Shown here one piece after another: positions 6,982 through 28,538 of a DNA stretch of 64,000 nucleotides (position 1 is the stretch's first letter; every line of letters begins with the position of its first letter). Location: the NCBI GenBank assembly GCA_028868715.1, contig JAGWUB010000002.1:8430-72429 (forward strand), written 5' to 3'. The DNA is from Patescibacteria group bacterium. Lineage in GTDB: Bacteria > Patescibacteriota > Minisyncoccia > Phycocordibacterales > UBA9973. The position numbers and the translations under genes are program-made. The notes under the pieces are model-generated. The model was not told the origin of the DNA, searched no databases, and saw only the letters and a program-made list of their open reading frames with translations.

Positions 6982-7851
6982 ATGTTTGAAAATTGGAAAA
7001 TATTTGAAGGTACTTACGTCAACCCCATCGTCCTAAAAGACAGAATGACAACGATAGAGGAGGTAAGACAAAGCTCCAAGGACAAAAATAAGGAAGTGAA
7101 TGAAGCTATTTTGGAGCGTTTGAAAATTATTGAAGTAAAATATTTATCAAAAGACAAAAAAGTTTATTTAGGGCAGATAGTCATCGATAAAGATTTGGCT
7201 GACAATATCTTGAAATTGTTTGATTATATTGAAAAAATGAATAACAACACTGATACAGCAGATGATAAGAAATTTTTTATAGAAAAAATAATACCGATAT
7301 CAAATGAAAAATATAAAGACAACGATGCTCTGTCTATGGAAGACAACAATACCTCTGCATTTAATTACAGATTAATAGAAGGAAAAAACAGATTATCTTC
7401 ACACGCCTTTGGTTTTTCTATAGATATAAACCCCAAGGATAATCCGGTTATGATTAATGGAGTAGTAAGTCAACCAAGAAATGGCAAGTATGATGAAAAA
7501 AATTCAAATACCTTAACCCCGCATCATAAGGTGGTAGAATTTTTAAAACAACGAGGATTTGAATGGGGTGGAGACTGGAAGTCTTCAAAAGATTACCATC
7601 ATTTTCAAAAGATCCTTCCCACCAAAGAGTACCTAAAGAATTATATTGATAACGCAATTGATAACACAGAAGAAAATATTTTAGATACACTTGGAAAGTT
7701 ATTTATCAATAGTTACAAATTGGAACATTTTCAGGCACTACTCAATTTTGTTAAAAATGATGTTATTATCAGCAAAATTGGCAAAGAACAATACTTGAAA
7801 TTTTTTAATCTTTTAAACGAGCAAATACATAATGCACAAATACGATCATAA
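6982..7851 (+). CDS. M15 family metallopeptidase (peptidoglycan peptidase)
   Basis: NNTSAFNYR, S.HAFG.SIDINP, WGGDW...DYHHFQ. Confidence 0.88.
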   Translation: MFENWKIFEGTYVNPIVLKDRMTTIEEVRQSSKDKNKEVNEAILERLKIIEVKYLSKDKKVYLGQIVIDKDLADNILKLFDYIEKMNNNTDTADDKKFFIEKIIPISNEKYKDNDALSMEDNNTSAFNYRLIEGKNRLSSHAFGFSIDINPKDNPVMINGVVSQPRNGKYDEKNSNTLTPHHKVVEFLKQRGFEWGGDWKSSKDYHHFQKILPTKEYLKNYIDNAIDNTEENILDTLGKLFINSYKLEHFQALLNFVKNDVIISKIGKEQYLKFFNLLNEQIHNAQIRS

Positions 7852-10663
7852 GAAAATTGAAAAAAAATGGCAAAATATTTGGGAGAAAAAGGGAGTTTAT
7901 CATGCCGATGATAAATCTAAGAAACCCAAGTATTATACTTTAATTGAATTCCCATATCCTTCCGGTGATGGCCTTCATGTAGGACACCCTAGGCCGTACA
8001 TAGGTATGGATGTTATTTCTAGAAAAAGACGAATGCAAGGGTACAACGTACTTTACCCGATAGGTTGGGACGCCTTTGGATTGCCGACAGAAAACTATGC
8101 CATAAAGACTGGTAAGGATCCCAGAGTGGTTACCAAGAAAAATACTGACACTTTTAGAAAACAAATAAAGTCTTTAGGGGTTTCCTTTGATTGGTCACGA
8201 GAAATTAATACCACTGACCCAAAATATTATAAATGGACCCAATGGATATTTTTACAATTTTATAAAAAGGGCTTAGCTTATAAGGCTAAGATGACCATTA
8301 ATTGGTGCCCAAAGGATAAAATAGGTTTAGCCAACGAAGAAGTGATAAATGGGTGTTGCGAGAGGTGTGGCACACCAGTTGAAAAGCGAGAGAAAGAACA
8401 GTGGATGCTGGGCATTACTAAATATGCTGAGAGATTGGATAAAGATTTAGATACCGTTGATTATTTACCACAAATAAAAATAGGGCAGAGGAATTGGATA
8501 GGGAAGTCTGTGGGCGCAGAGATAGAATTTAAAATATCTTCAACCAACGAAAGTATAAAAGTATTCACCACTCGACCAGACACTATTTTCGGCGCTACAT
8601 TTATTGCGTTAGCTCCTGAGGTGGCAAAGAAAATAACAGGTAAAGATTTTGGCATAAAAGTAGATACCGATCGAGAGAATAAAGAAAAAATTGGTATAGA
8701 TACTGGGTTGAAGGCTAAAAATCCTGCGAGCGGTGAACAAATACCCGTATTCGTAGTCAATTATGTATCCGCAGATTATGGCACAGGAGCTATAATGGGA
8801 GTACCGGCGCACGATGAAAGAGATTTTGAATTTGCGAAAAAATATAATTTACCAATTATAGATGTGGTAATACCCATTAGAGTTGATAATACCAATCCTC
8901 ATATTTCTGGTAAAAAAATTGTTGAAAGAAAAGCTGTTCAAGCAATAATTAGAAATCCAAAAAATGGAAAAATTCTTTGTTTAAATTGGAAGGCTCATCC
9001 ATGGACTACGTTTGTGGTTGGTGGAGTGGAAAAAGGAGAAGATATTCTAGAAGCCGCAAGACGAGAAGTGTTAGAAGAAACAGGTTATAAAAATATAAAA
9101 TTTATAAGAGTATTAGGTGGCCAAGTAAGAAGTGAGTTTTTTGCAGCACATAAAGACGAAAATAGAGTTGCATATTTTAATGCTATTTTATTTGAACTAG
9201 AGAACGAAGATAGGATCGAAGTTTCAAGAGAAGAAATTGAAAAACATGAAGTTGTATGGAAGGACCCAAAAGATATTCGTTCTGATACTATGCAATGTGG
9301 AGAGCTAGATATTTGGCTTGAAAGACTAAAAAATGAAAACGCTGTTAATGCAGAGAATGGTATTCTAACTAACTCTGGAAAATTTAATGGCATGGACAGT
9401 GAAAATGCTAAGAAGGAAATCATTAAATTTGTTGGTGTAGAGGAAAAAACAACCTTCAAGCTTCGGGATTGGATATTCTCTAGACAGAGGTACTGGGGTG
9501 AACCAATACCTATTATTCATTGTAGTAAATGTGGTATGGTTCCAGTTCCTGAAAAAGATTTGCCCGTAGAGCTTCCTAAGGTAAAAAATTATCAGCCGAC
9601 GGATAGTGGCGAATCACCACTGGCCAATATTTCTAAATGGGTCAATGTAAAATGTCCAAAGTGTAAAGGGGGAGCATTGAGGGAGACAGATACTATGCCA
9701 AACTGGGCAGGCTCAAGCTGGTATTACCTTAGATATACAGACCCTAAAAATAAAAATGCATTTGCTGACAAGAAAAATTTGAAATACTGGACACCAGTAG
9801 ATTGGTACAACGGTGGCAACGAACACACCACGCTTCATCTTTTATATTCTCGTTTTTGGCACAAATTTCTGTATGATTTAAAGCTCGTACCAACTTCCGA
9901 GCCGTACATGAAGCGTACTTCTCATGGCATGATTCTCGGTGAAGGGGGAGTAAAGATGTCTAAATCAGTCGGCAACGTCATCAACCCAAACGAAATCGTA
10001 AAAATATATGGAGCCGATACAATGCGAGTTTACGAAATGTTTATGGGGCCGTTCGATCAGTCTGTGGCTTGGAGTGACGAAGCGATCATAGGTCCACGAA
10101 GATTTTTAGAAAAAGTTTGGAAGTTGGGGGAGCTGGTAGAGAAAAATTCAGTCCGTGTCGGAGCCCGCTTGCGGGTAAAGCGGCGTGATTTTTCTCTACC
10201 AGATTCCACTATAGCTAAACTCTTAAACAAGACAATAAAAAAAGTTTCTGAAGATATAGAAGCTATGCATTTCAATACCGCCATTTCTGCAATGATGATA
10301 CTTGCTACAGAAATGCAAAAATCAGAATCTGTTTCAGAAAAAGATTTCAAAATGTTTTTACAAATTTTAGCCCCATTCGCACCACACATTACCGAAGATC
10401 TCTGGCAGACACTCGGAGAGAAAAAATCTATCGATCTTTCCGTTTGGCCCAAGTGGGATGAAAATTTAATTCAAGACGAAGAGGTGACCATAATAGTTCA
10501 AGTAAATGGCAAAGTACGCGGACAATTTAAAGCTTCTGTAGACATAAGTGAGGCTGAAGCTAAAAGCAAAGCAGAGAATTTACCAGAAGTTAGGAAATGG
10601 ATAACCACAGGTGTCAAGAGGTTTGTGTTTATCCCCAGAAAACTTATTAACATTGTAGTTTAG
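7832..10663 (+). CDS. leuS: leucine--tRNA ligase with inserted Nudix domain
   Basis: FPYPSGDGLHVGH, FTTRPDT, GTGAIMGVPAHD, KMSKS; Nudix box GGVEKGEDILEAARREVLEETG. Confidence 0.97.
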   Translation: MHKYDHKKIEKKWQNIWEKKGVYHADDKSKKPKYYTLIEFPYPSGDGLHVGHPRPYIGMDVISRKRRMQGYNVLYPIGWDAFGLPTENYAIKTGKDPRVVTKKNTDTFRKQIKSLGVSFDWSREINTTDPKYYKWTQWIFLQFYKKGLAYKAKMTINWCPKDKIGLANEEVINGCCERCGTPVEKREKEQWMLGITKYAERLDKDLDTVDYLPQIKIGQRNWIGKSVGAEIEFKISSTNESIKVFTTRPDTIFGATFIALAPEVAKKITGKDFGIKVDTDRENKEKIGIDTGLKAKNPASGEQIPVFVVNYVSADYGTGAIMGVPAHDERDFEFAKKYNLPIIDVVIPIRVDNTNPHISGKKIVERKAVQAIIRNPKNGKILCLNWKAHPWTTFVVGGVEKGEDILEAARREVLEETGYKNIKFIRVLGGQVRSEFFAAHKDENRVAYFNAILFELENEDRIEVSREEIEKHEVVWKDPKDIRSDTMQCGELDIWLERLKNENAVNAENGILTNSGKFNGMDSENAKKEIIKFVGVEEKTTFKLRDWIFSRQRYWGEPIPIIHCSKCGMVPVPEKDLPVELPKVKNYQPTDSGESPLANISKWVNVKCPKCKGGALRETDTMPNWAGSSWYYLRYTDPKNKNAFADKKNLKYWTPVDWYNGGNEHTTLHLLYSRFWHKFLYDLKLVPTSEPYMKRTSHGMILGEGGVKMSKSVGNVINPNEIVKIYGADTMRVYEMFMGPFDQSVAWSDEAIIGPRRFLEKVWKLGELVEKNSVRVGARLRVKRRDFSLPDSTIAKLLNKTIKKVSEDIEAMHFNTAISAMMILATEMQKSESVSEKDFKMFLQILAPFAPHITEDLWQTLGEKKSIDLSVWPKWDENLIQDEEVTIIVQVNGKVRGQFKASVDISEAEAKSKAENLPEVRKWITTGVKRFVFIPRKLINIVV
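10133..10202. repeat. GC-rich palindromic element within leuS
   Basis: 15-bp perfect inverted repeat ctggtagagaaaaat/atttttctctaccag enclosing tccg-tgt-cgga and cccgc-tt-gcggg hairpins. Confidence 0.8.
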
Positions 10664-22140: not shown

Positions 22141-22403
22141 TTGTGTCCTCGGCAGGATATCTCGGTTTACCACCGCGGGTGCTTTTCCGTTTAGTTTTAC
22201 TAAACATGGAAAAGCCTTTCGCTTCCTGCCCGAAATAAAGCAGTTTATTTCTCTCGGACACAGTTGTGTCCTCGGCAGGATATCTCGGTTTACCACCGCG
22301 GGTGCTTTTCCGTTTAGTTTTACTAAACAAGGAAAAGCCTTTCGCTTCCTGCACGAAATAAAGCAGTTTATTTCTCTCGGACACACTTGTGTCCTCGGCA
22401 GGA
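22141..22403 (-). repeat. two tandem 123-bp units downstream of tRNA-Arg, each ending in a copy of the tRNA 3' end
   Basis: 22141-22263 and 22264-22386 differ at 3 positions; ttgtgtcctcggcagga occurs at 22141, 22264 and 22387. Confidence 0.95.
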
Positions 22404-25146: not shown

Positions 25147-27283
25147 TTGATTTATCGTGTGCTCCTTTGAGGGGCCATTTTTCTACCATTAAAAAATTCT
25201 TATGGTCTGGTAAAATAGACCAAATTTCTTCAGTCACAAAAGGCATAAATGGATGCAATAATTTTATGGAGTTTTCCAATATATAATAAAGTGTCTCTCC
25301 ATAGCCGTCCTTACCCTTGGATTCTTCGATAATCTCGTCTGCGAATCGGTGCCATATATAAGCATACAACTTTTCTGCTGCTAAATAGAATCGGAAATTG
25401 TCCATATCAAATGTTATATCTTTAGCCATTGTATTCCATTCATCTACCAACTCTTTTTTTAAGCCACCTTCTCTTTTGATCGAGAGAACATAGCGAGTAA
25501 TGTTCCAAATTTTATTAGCAAAATTTTTGTATGCTTTTACTTTTCCTAAATCAAACTTTCCATCTGCGCCAGGTCCAATACCTACAATCATAGACATCCG
25601 TAAGGCATCAGCACCGTATTCATTTATGATTTCAATTGGGTCTATGCCATTACCTTGCGACTTACTAAATTTCTGTCCCTTGGCATCGCGGAGCATCCCA
25701 TGCAAGTAGACGGTTTCAAATGGAATTTCGCCTATTAAATATTGTGACATCAAAATCATTCTAGCAACCCAGAAAAAAAGAATTTCATAGCCGGGGTTTA
25801 TTACACTAGTTGGATGGAAGTTCTTTAAATCTTTAGCACTTATATCTGGCCAGCCAAGAGTAGAAAAAGTCCAAAGTCCAGAAGAAAACCATGTGTCCAA
25901 GGTGTCTTCATCTTGAGTCCAGCCTTCGCCATTAGGAGCTTCGATTCCACAGTAGGTCTCATTTTCTTTATACCAGACTGGAATTCTGTGGCCGTACCAA
26001 ATTTGTCGGCTGATACACCAATCGCGTAAGTTTTCTATCCAATTAAAGTAAACCTTTTCAAAATGGTCAGGGAGTATTTTTATATCCTTATTTCTCACAG
26101 GTTCCAGCATCAATTCTTTTAGTGATTTATTGTCACGGTCAGGAATTTTTTTATTTACATCCACAAACCACTGGAGCATTATTTGTGGTTCGATTATTCC
26201 ACCTGAGCGTTCGGCGGTAGCTACACGATTTATATAATTTTCATCTATGGAAACGAGTAATCCTTTGGCTTTTAATTTTTCAACTATTTTTTCTCGGGCG
26301 TCCAGAATCTTCATCCCAGCAAATTCTTGGGCAACTGGTAAGAGTTTTCCGTATTTATCTATAATTTGTTCTTTGTCTAGTTTGTATTTTTCCGCTAAAG
26401 CGAAGTCTTCGTGTGAGTGCCAAGGAGTGATGGTCATTACCCCTGTGCCAAATTCCATATCAATCATATCATCCTTGATTACAGTGGCTTCTATTGGCCC
26501 ATTTATCCATTCTAGTTGGATCTTTTGTCCATGAGTATACTTTGCATAGCGTTTATCGTCCGGATGCATTACCACATATTTATCACCAAATTTTGTTTCT
26601 GGTCTTGCCGTGGCTATCTCAAAAGGTCCGTATTTAAAGGTATAAAATTTATTTTTCTGTTCCACATAAACTATCTCATCATCCGAGATGACTGTTTGCC
26701 CCTTAGGATCCCAATTCACGATACGATGCCCCCTATAAATTAATCCATCATCATACATTTTTTTAAACGTAGTTCTTACGGCGAGATTTCGCGCTTTGTC
26801 CAAAGTGAAAGCTTCGCGGGACCAATCTAAGGAGGCGCCGATTTTTCGTAGTTGGGTAACTATAGTTTTCCTACTATCAGCGACAAATTCATCTACGCGT
26901 TCTAAAAATTTTTCTCGGCCGATGTCTCTTTTTTTTAAACCCTCCTTCTCAAGAATTTTGGAAACTTTTGAATCAGTGGCTATAGCAGCGTGATCCGTGC
27001 CAGGGAGCCAGAGAGTTCTTTTGCCCAGCATGCGGTTGTAGCGAATCATGGTGTCTTGCATAGAATCCTCCAACACGTGTCCGAGGTGTAGTACGCCGGT
27101 GGCATTTGGGGGAGGCAGAACAATGGAAAAATAAGGTGCATCAGCTTTAGCTATACCTTTTTCTACACATATATCGGGATTAAAAAAACCACTATCTTCC
27201 CATAGTTTGTAAATCCGATCTTCAGTATTTTTCGGATCATAAGGCCTCAGCAGTCTCTCGTCCACCCCGTTAGAGATTTCCAT
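25139..27283 (-). CDS. valS: valine--tRNA ligase (short, lacks C-terminal coiled-coil arm)
   Basis: PPPNATGVLHLGH, WCISRQIWYGH, DTWFSS, KFSKS, LLHPFMPF. Confidence 0.96.
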   Translation of the reverse strand: MEISNGVDERLLRPYDPKNTEDRIYKLWEDSGFFNPDICVEKGIAKADAPYFSIVLPPPNATGVLHLGHVLEDSMQDTMIRYNRMLGKRTLWLPGTDHAAIATDSKVSKILEKEGLKKRDIGREKFLERVDEFVADSRKTIVTQLRKIGASLDWSREAFTLDKARNLAVRTTFKKMYDDGLIYRGHRIVNWDPKGQTVISDDEIVYVEQKNKFYTFKYGPFEIATARPETKFGDKYVVMHPDDKRYAKYTHGQKIQLEWINGPIEATVIKDDMIDMEFGTGVMTITPWHSHEDFALAEKYKLDKEQIIDKYGKLLPVAQEFAGMKILDAREKIVEKLKAKGLLVSIDENYINRVATAERSGGIIEPQIMLQWFVDVNKKIPDRDNKSLKELMLEPVRNKDIKILPDHFEKVYFNWIENLRDWCISRQIWYGHRIPVWYKENETYCGIEAPNGEGWTQDEDTLDTWFSSGLWTFSTLGWPDISAKDLKNFHPTSVINPGYEILFFWVARMILMSQYLIGEIPFETVYLHGMLRDAKGQKFSKSQGNGIDPIEIINEYGADALRMSMIVGIGPGADGKFDLGKVKAYKNFANKIWNITRYVLSIKREGGLKKELVDEWNTMAKDITFDMDNFRFYLAAEKLYAYIWHRFADEIIEESKGKDGYGETLYYILENSIKLLHPFMPFVTEEIWSILPDHKNFLMVEKWPLKGAHDKSNV

Positions 27284-27344
27284 AATATATTAAAATGATT
27301 TAACCAATATAATAAGACTTGAATCTCGTTATCTCTAACGGGGT
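27264..27344. repeat. 81-bp inverted-repeat element overlapping the valS start
   Basis: Perfect 14-bp arms accccgttagagat / atctctaacggggt. Confidence 0.8.
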
Positions 27345-27350
27345 CCATCC

Positions 27351-28538
27351 CTAAATAATATCACATTTAAGCTTTAGATTACCAGTTGCTTTGATAGTAT
27401 CCATTTTAGGTACTTTCTTTTTGTTTTTAATATAATTTAAATACCCAGCAATGCCGATCATCAGTGAATTATCTCCCGTGAGTTCTTTTTGTGGCAGAAG
27501 TAGCTTAATTTTATATTGCTTGGCAAGCTTTTTCATCTCTCTTTGTAGGTGTATGTTGCAAGCCACCCCGCCACCGACGATGATAGTTTTGATTTTATAT
27601 TTCTCAATTGCCTTGGCTGTTTTGTAGATTATTGGTTCAATAGCCGCGTTTTCAAATTCTAGAGCAATTTGCATTTTTGTTTCCTCACTAATCTTGGGTA
27701 ATCCACCAAGGTCTCTAATCAAATAAAGCACCGCGGTTTTCAATCCAGAATAAGAAAATTTAAAATCTTTAGATTTCAGCATTGGGCGGGGAAGAGCGAA
27801 AGAAAAACCAATCTTTTCAGGGTCGCTGTCTCCGCGTGCTCGCGGAGCGCTCCCTCTCGGCTCGACAGCCTGCGAGAGACCCTTCGAAGATTGTTTTTCT
27901 TTTGCTCTTAATTCTTCCGCAAGTTTTGAAATCTGAGGACCGCCTGGGTAGTCCAAGCCTAGCATGCGGGCGACTTTGTCGTAGGCTTCACCGATAGCAT
28001 CGTCTAAGGTTTCACCAATTATTTCATACTGCATCCATTTTTTACTGACGATCAACTGTGTATGTCCACCAGAGACTAAAAGCGAAAGCATAGGTGTTTT
28101 CACTTTTTCAACTTTGAATTTTCCCTTATTAGTTTTTACATTTTTCTTTCCGAACACCGAAAGTATATGCCCCTCCATGTGATTGGTGGGTATCAAAGGC
28201 ACATTCCATTTTTTTGCCAAATCTTTAGCAAATGTAATTCCTTCCCACAGACACATTTCCAAACCGGGGCCGTAAGTCACCGCTACTGCATCTACAGGAG
28301 TCTTTTTTTTACCAAGCTTAGACTCTATCATCACTTGCTCAAATAAAATTGGCAAATTTTTAGCATGTTCTCGCTTGGCGAGGGCAGGGTATACTCCGCC
28401 ATATGGGATATGTTTTGGTATTTGCGAATTGGAAGCATCTGCCAAAATCTTAAAAGAAGCATTTTGAGTGCCTCCACCCACTTCCATTATGGTTATCCCC
28501 GTATCATCGCAAGATGTTTCTATACTTAATATTTTCAT
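27351..28538 (-). CDS. tsaD: tRNA N6-threonylcarbamoyltransferase TsaD with insertion
   Basis: IETSCDDT, NHMEGH, VSGGHT, DDAIGEAYDKVAR, FSYSGLKT, GGGVACN. Confidence 0.96.
   Translation of the reverse strand: MKILSIETSCDDTGITIMEVGGGTQNASFKILADASNSQIPKHIPYGGVYPALAKREHAKNLPILFEQVMIESKLGKKKTPVDAVAVTYGPGLEMCLWEGITFAKDLAKKWNVPLIPTNHMEGHILSVFGKKNVKTNKGKFKVEKVKTPMLSLLVSGGHTQLIVSKKWMQYEIIGETLDDAIGEAYDKVARMLGLDYPGGPQISKLAEELRAKEKQSSKGLSQAVEPRGSAPRARGDSDPEKIGFSFALPRPMLKSKDFKFSYSGLKTAVLYLIRDLGGLPKISEETKMQIALEFENAAIEPIIYKTAKAIEKYKIKTIIVGGGVACNIHLQREMKKLAKQYKIKLLLPQKELTGDNSLMIGIAGYLNYIKNKKKVPKMDTIKATGNLKLKCDII
27792..27909. repeat. GC-rich palindromic element within tsaD
   Basis: Imperfect arms aagagcgaaagaaaaaccaatcttttcagggtc / gacccttcgaagattgtttttcttttgctctt enclosing gctgtc..gacagc and tccgcg-tgct-cgcgga. 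Confidence 0.85.

Follow-up and report, generated by a model that had tools for sequence, protein, structure and literature searches.

In this genome from the ultra-small Patescibacteria, tsaD, an essential gene for tRNA modification, carries, in frame, a 118-base branched palindrome. Relatives have different, often unrelated or flipped hairpins at the same spot, so the loop is likely a reusable slot for small selfish-DNA elements that come and go. With slightly better than even confidence, we read the hairpin as a non-autonomous mobile palindrome that is translated with its host; inside the resident arms of the tsaD slot, its interior would be exchanged, turned round or lost. Coordinates below refer to the window, the 64,000-nucleotide stretch of DNA that was analyzed, unless another sequence is named.

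The host gene (27351..28538, negative strand) encodes 395 amino acids, and its open reading frame (ORF) matches the TIGR03723 profile with 325 bits against a cut-off of 296. The whole hairpin (27792..27909, negative strand) reads in frame as approximately residues 210 to 249. It adds about 28 codons to a surface loop of TsaD, directly behind the helix that goes with the YPGGP motif, and ends in the Leu of LPRPM. The initial annotation had described an in-frame branched palindrome at this place, encoding a peptide between ISKLA and PRPM where TsaD normally has a short loop. Our translation gave the same peptide, and the hairpin was confirmed, with two corrections to its structure that are given below. 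The region 27780-27920 folded with -67 kcal/mol (z = -6.0) on the positive strand and -63 (z = -5.66) on the negative strand, and none of 200 shuffled sequences folded as well. Compared with solved TsaD structures, the window protein has approximately 32 extra residues (210-245 against 190-193 of 4wq5), i.e., 36 residues where the solved proteins have about 4. The commonest short loop among relatives comprises 20 codons, as opposed to 48 in the window tsaD. The named relatives were mostly Candidatus Nomurabacteria or Paceibacterota.

AlphaFold modeling with 61 relatives returned an ordinary TsaD fold (pLDDT 89.9; best PDB match, 3zet). The pLDDT fell below 50 at residues 218-244 and was about 95 elsewhere. 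These residues are predicted to be disordered, in keeping with the surface loop that the initial annotation had supposed, and the insert is probably read as harmless extra protein, a disordered linker. Contigs from runs X1 (27300-28227) and X3 (27300-28498), which come from one sample, possibly the source sample, spanned the element with no differences. Thus, the hairpin is not an assembly artefact.

To describe the site, we read 170 distinct tsaD alleles (166 plus four rescued). The set excludes two duplicates, the unpublished L112, two loci truncated at contig ends and one locus that lacks residues 172-210. All 170 alleles kept the frame and contained no stop, and the other frames of the long inserts had a stop in 441 of 630 cases. 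This count speaks against splicing of the insert, for which the initial annotation had proposed a check. The broader explanation, in which the hairpin acts as an intron or bypass element and is taken out of the RNA or skipped by the ribosome, would make sense of the long closing stem, which draws the flanks together on the mRNA strand. However, the frame is never broken, the hairpin had no Rfam match above chance, splice structure was not found, both orientations occur, and boundaries and lengths vary; we give this explanation almost no credence. One locus, L075, has an apparent frameshift between residues 58 and 73, outside the slot, possibly an assembly error.

Long alleles comprised 126 of the 153 ingroup alleles in this sample, which favors close matches to the query. 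All 17 outgroup alleles, 14 from other families of the order and 3 divergent, were short. In an unbiased draw, 22 of 35 genus genomes had a long tsaD insert and 13 were short. Seven families, which we defined by motif and labeled for this analysis, as were their subtypes, were found in the slot: A in 101 alleles, C in 9, B in 8, and D, E, F and G in 2 each. Superfamily A was represented by seven subtypes, and its single inserts were in the sense orientation in 71 alleles and antisense in 25. Five alleles carried tandem inserts. Other TsaD loops of the ingroup contained short repeats at most. Still smaller repeats, e.g., heptamer runs and short GC-rich palindromes, were seen in short alleles (L059, L085, L221 and L239 among them) and in other TsaD loops.

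On a tsaD tree built without the insert, the type of tenant in the slot, scored for 148 tips, required 101 changes, as opposed to a mean of 109.5 and a minimum of 103 in shuffled data (0 of 500 shuffles were as low). Tenant type therefore barely follows the tsaD tree; the tree signal is small but real. Presence or absence of an insert required 24 changes against 24.2 in shuffled data and is thus random on the tree. Wherever synonymous identity was below 0.7, allele pairs had a tenant in common in 8 to 11% of cases, whatever their distance, and tenants differed in two of the three closest pairs.

Such a pattern might arise if a few ancient insertion alleles were shuffled among species by homologous recombination of tsaD fragments. 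Tenants of the same type with the same arms do occur in distant alleles, and the cores of A1+ tenants share 86% identity in alleles whose synonymous codons share 46%. However, there was no co-conversion of flanks in any of six windows (29 to 264 of 300 permutations reached the observed value). Since same-tenant alleles were no closer in flanking synonymous codons than expected, tsaD tracts are not being exchanged, and their horizontal transfer was rejected. Moreover, a variant of the core goes with the genome, whichever gene it sits in. We regard allele shuffling as very unlikely.

The window copy belongs to subtype A1, and all its parts lie on the negative strand. The core (27820..27882), the part common to the pcrA/uvrD and def copies, is a 63-nt three-way junction with 73% GC. 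It contains inner hairpin 1 (27859..27870), with a 4-bp covarying stem and, in the window copy, a GTCG loop, and inner hairpin 2 (27830..27847), with an AGCA loop and a 7-bp stem, the inner 5 bp of which vary freely and remain Watson-Crick. The 27-nt 5' arm in the sense of the gene (27883..27909) begins at the host Arg codon region and includes the tsaD-specific arm motif GAAAAACAA at 27891-27899. The 28-nt 3' arm (27792..27819) ends in the Leu codon of the conserved LPRPM. An unpaired G at 27809 (27808 is equally good), 11 nt from the core, is conserved across host genes. The imperfect outer arms of roughly 32 bp in the initial annotation thus become arms of 27 and 28 nt, in which a single G is unpaired and which an additional junction stem closes. 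The gctgtc/gacagc inner stem that it listed needs the GTCG loop variant, found in 6 of 159 A1 copies, and is not a conserved structure. In two A-type elements (G000 C2 203589-203745 and L049), a longer stretch rich in A and T takes the place of inner hairpin 1, which hints that cargo can be accommodated there.

We evaluated how widely A1 is spread. The exact pattern was present in 54 of 121 genus genomes, a tally that takes in the unpublished genome G084, and a reversed control gave 0. Among 301 class genomes, it was confined to its own genus. The genome of the window contains two other A1 copies, in pcrA/uvrD and def, related A subtypes in fmt and in intergenic sequence, and other hairpin families in tgt, uvrB, uvrC, polA, mnmA and leuS. 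Ninety-two of the 96 flanked genome copies of A1 were in frame in coding sequence, at about 20 fixed sites. The most frequent were pcrA/uvrD (28 copies), tsaD (18), tgt (17), ileS (5), def (4), recG (3) and fmt (3). One or two copies each were found in leuS, uvrB, a CCA/poly(A)-type polymerase gene, rluA, polA, mnmA, rsmA, metK and a gene for a prenyltransferase-fold protein, and one copy lay in a contig-end ORF without an assigned host. We take the def and rsmA hosts to be such from recognition of their sequences; def had no NCBIfam match at 1e-40. Orientation was nearly even, with 46 sense and 50 antisense copies.

The A1 hosts are almost all DNA or tRNA enzymes. The initial annotation had pointed to tRNA-related hosts, and many are, but DNA helicases, UvrB and PolA are equally common. 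A metagenome scan, in which 80 of at least 124 loci were read, yielded 63 further A1 copies, of which 13 seemed to be non-coding and 4 lay in ORFs without an assignment. Most of the 63 came from higher-GC contigs, where copies were mostly intergenic. Another in-frame family has two copies in mnmA and single copies in uvrC and rsmA (G000 C2 167844-169025, C1 133916-135256 and C1 97588-98415).

The fold of A1 is better conserved than its sequence: across the 159 A1 copies, the inner stems vary, yet both are almost wholly Watson-Crick. Loop 1 was GACG in 142 copies and loop 2 was AGCA in 118. A one-base bulge on the arm after the core was present in 84 of the 96 genome copies, at position 11 in 68 and as a G in 55. 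The metagenome copies had it in 38 of 50 cases, 35 of them at position 11.

Mispairs in the stems distinguish the two strands. Counted as unique events on the element strand of the genome copies, G.T and A.C stood at 28:16 in sense copies (P = 0.10) and 31:11 in antisense copies (P = 0.003). The metagenome copies, which can share sites with the genome set, gave 17:3 and 13:2, respectively. For non-A1 tsaD inserts, the ratios were 59:55 in the sense orientation, i.e., no bias, and 42:20 in the antisense orientation. Since the element strand has the G.T excess even when the element is antisense, the mRNA of antisense copies has poorer pairing, which argues against a role for the mRNA. We infer from these mispairs that the folded element strand, rather than the mRNA, is what is recognized.

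The same counts bear on the possibility that the host selects a long hairpin or linker, with any palindrome being suitable, for instance to signal DNA binding or supercoiling, to pause translation or to tune a repair and modification enzyme. The long inserts of 22 of 35 genomes in the unbiased draw, the strong covariation of the inner stems and the concentration in DNA and tRNA enzymes, as for intragenic REPs described in other phyla (PMC3733652), would all fit with this. High occupancy of one site is also expected under positive selection, which counts against our preferred reading. However, 13 of the 35 genomes are short, both orientations and unrelated peptides occur, the presence of an insert is random on the tree, and the mRNA of antisense copies carries more A.C than G.U (11 versus 31 in element terms). 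Host function therefore seems improbable to us as the main explanation.

The reading phase of A1 is nearly invariant. One phase per orientation was used in 87 of 88 assignable coding copies, at 13 sites for each orientation, and the two phases are those given by inversion about the stem axis, set by the geometry of core and bulge. Antisense frame 1 was open in 70 of the 96 copies with arms and was used 0 times inside host genes. Peptide hydrophobicity is insufficient as the cause of the fixed phase, because the antisense frame in use exceeds an unused open frame in hydrophobicity, even if its Cys residues are fewer. The idea that all outer stems share one third-to-third codon register was also rejected, since registers differ by family (52, 47 and 20).

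Arms and interiors have partly separate histories, and the initial idea of fixed arms with variable interiors is supported at tsaD. The 9-base arm motif was carried there by 27 of 32 alleles with a single A1, by 12 of 23 with A2, by 2 of 5 with A6 and by the only A7 allele; among short alleles, 4 of 27 had it. It was found in 1 of 151 A1 copies outside tsaD and in 1 of the 17 outgroup tsaD alleles; thus, it is not an old host sequence. The motif could be a host E-K-Q codon run. Arm similarity tracked the site (0 of 1,000 permutations) and not the genome (141 of 1,000). Conversely, a diagnostic core base pair tracked the genome (0.954 versus 0.762; 0 of 500) and not the site (276 of 500). Whole-core identity tracked the site too (1 of 1,000), and the hairpin-2 stem tracked both genome and site (site, 0 of 500), so part of the signal is descent. 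Allele L090 kept both arms and no core, and in L025 a family-B-type left arm is joined to an A1-type right arm.

The main rival explains these data by fresh insertion, with no exchange of interiors. The element, arms included, would enter a preferred purine-rich run (E-K-Q) before a pyrimidine-rich run (F-S-L), the far arm being made or perfected by template switching and the insert later lost by imprecise deletion. In 21 of 126 long alleles, pairing extends into the codons of the allele itself that surround the host Arg, as opposed to 5.8 for swapped probes (maximum, 15). In addition, L131 retains the old loop end after its insert, L098 has a bare E-K-Q-S loop, many tenants are without an A1-type arm, and A1 arms share a loose consensus across sites. 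The motif was absent from all A4+ (8), A5+ (8), B (8) and C (9) tenants at tsaD, which indicates that fresh insertion with new arms also happens. As a complete account, however, fresh insertion would require the same codon phase independently at some 20 sites even though other frames are often open, and its motif is present in a single outgroup allele. We consider it possible, though unlikely.

Exchange within resident arms, the reading that we prefer, could proceed as follows. The element's own strand would fold and be recognized as a structure, the bulged stem with its two tetraloops. A resident hairpin that is cut, or that stalls replication, would make the site fragile. Repair via the A/T-rich arms would then copy in another palindrome from the same genome, flip the interior or delete it. 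In an essential gene, only frame-keeping outcomes would survive, and the gene would also shelter the element from loss. The putative enzyme would act in trans. A bolder generalization, which we offer only tentatively and think more doubtful, is that Nomurabacteria-type bacteria have a system of structure-guided cassette exchange. About 20 fixed loops of DNA and tRNA enzymes would hold resident bulged stems. A host enzyme that recognizes the folded strand would exchange their interiors, turn them round or remove them, and no element-encoded transposase would be involved. Such a system would rewrite these loops faster than synonymous drift and draw in passengers from unrelated nuclease-linked elements.

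A second in-frame hairpin of the window, in leuS (10133..10202, positive strand), was identified by a profile match and a genome inverted-repeat scan. The initial annotation had placed it in one family with the tsaD element, an assignment that fails: it matches the profile of family F, built from tsaD alleles L010 and L180, and the two peptides do not align. Family F occupies the tsaD slot in 2 alleles, from two other genomes, and the leuS slot holds A1 in four other genomes. Judged from these occurrences, the tsaD and leuS hairpins are linked by site sharing, not by family. The LeuS protein (7832-10663) also contains a NUDIX domain at residues 365-481.

We searched for an enzyme that might move A1. 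No A1 match was found in 30 Y1-transposase, 30 GIY-YIG and 30 DUF559 loci, and the sole A match in these 90 loci was an A5 that lay roughly 750 nt away from a gene of the DUF559 type. None of 18 extra left-half matches was a half-element with cargo, and scans of viral sequences with four patterns gave 0 matches. The genome of the window had no match to Y1, reverse transcriptase, IS110, TnpB-type, HNH or four-helix-bundle proteins; it encodes one Xer-like (XerC/D-like) recombinase and two small GIY-YIG proteins, with two weak DUF559 matches. By eye, the neighbors of non-coding A1 copies (23 loci) were ordinary genes, with no evident mobilizer.

Other families do border nuclease genes. Family C flanks DUF559 endonuclease genes, with profile matches at 8 of 30 loci and shared exact 16-mers at 4. 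Small GIY-YIG genes have an E-like end beside them at 5 of 22 loci. The slot therefore accepts passengers of different origin. At four loci (L554, L556, L557 and L561), the DUF559 genes are bordered by family C palindromes that match tsaD inserts. Locus L271 (G000 C1, approximately 207240-207570) consists of an 85-amino-acid GIY-YIG gene within 21-bp inverted repeats and is a candidate for the autonomous partner of family E. Family G resembled a Y1-linked REP by eye, but 0 of 23 loci matched the pattern, and this candidate was rejected. Y1 genes are present in 87 of the 121 genus genomes, many of them within inverted repeats of about 20 bp, of two or three types (L478-L504).

In several respects, A1 resembles the Rickettsia palindromic elements (Ogata 2000, 2002), described as palindromes of approximately 100 to 150 bp, of several families, in frame in unrelated housekeeping genes, about half of them coding and read as a constant peptide (PMC10969869). 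The likeness, a repeated palindrome of such length in frame in unrelated genes with constant phase and peptide, is one of description. Unlike the Rickettsia elements in that account, A1 belongs to another phylum and is coding in 92 of 96 genome copies rather than in about half, and a single site, that in tsaD, has served seven families, facing either way, and shows resident arms as well as scars and tandem pairs.

A second comparison is with the intragenic GTAG and CGTC REPs. Di Nocera et al. 2013 (PMC3733652) report that these favor uvrABCD, polA, tRNA synthetases and pseudouridine synthases. According to the same source, different REPs occupy about the same recB site, CGTC repeats are without a linked transposase, and REPs are mostly intergenic single hairpins of 20 to 40 bp with a terminal unpaired tag. 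A1 shares with these intragenic REPs the preference for repair and tRNA genes, and its GACG is the complement of the CGTC tag. Unlike REPs as described there, it forms a three-way junction, carries GACG within a loop, has long arms with a bulge and lies mostly in coding sequence. It has neither the single 5- to 13-bp stem with an unpaired terminal tag nor the RAYT/TIRYT flanking of the GTAG class (0 A-family matches in the 30 Y1 loci). The terminal inverted repeats conserved within a MITE family have no counterpart in A1, whose arms pair but are site specific. No direct target-site duplication was evident by eye in the tsaD alleles, among which clean empty/filled pairs are lacking.

Integron attC sites and the ends of IS200/IS605 elements (IS608) are folded single-strand substrates in which structure matters more than sequence, with strand asymmetry and an unpaired base at a fixed distance. 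The attC sites further have RYYYAAC and GTTRRRY ends, a cassette array and an integron integrase. A1 is attC-like in the extrahelical base at a fixed stem position. Unlike attC, it has no AAC/GTT ends and no cassette array, its copies lie inside housekeeping genes, and a single Xer-like recombinase is at hand. Unlike IS200/IS605 ends, it has no linked Y1 transposase. Our literature search, outside of which most subscription papers lie, found no description of the element or the site for Patescibacteria.

How such palindromes move and gather has been open since the Rickettsia reports, and their movement and the choice of repair and tRNA genes were left as speculation in the REP study (PMC3733652). 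One site with 170 alleles gives testable statements: the unit recognized is a bulged, strand-specific fold, sites are reused, tenants differ between close relatives, and some tenants trace to DUF559 and GIY-YIG genes. The preference for repair and tRNA genes was already reported for intragenic REPs (PMC3733652); slot behavior, the bulge and strand asymmetry are added by this analysis, and the supplements of that study may list further same-site cases. The alleles also show, as a library made by nature, which insertions an essential enzyme tolerates. In this group of bacteria, loops of the kind will lead annotation and phylogeny astray.

Two further repeats of the window deserve mention. A hairpin with ends CCCGTTAGAGA lies between tsaD and valS (27264-27344); it has two more copies in the genome with other interiors, and the same end flanks small GIY-YIG genes at 2 of 22 loci. 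At 22141-22386, two tandem 123-nt copies, 98% identical, lie beside a tRNA-like repeat.
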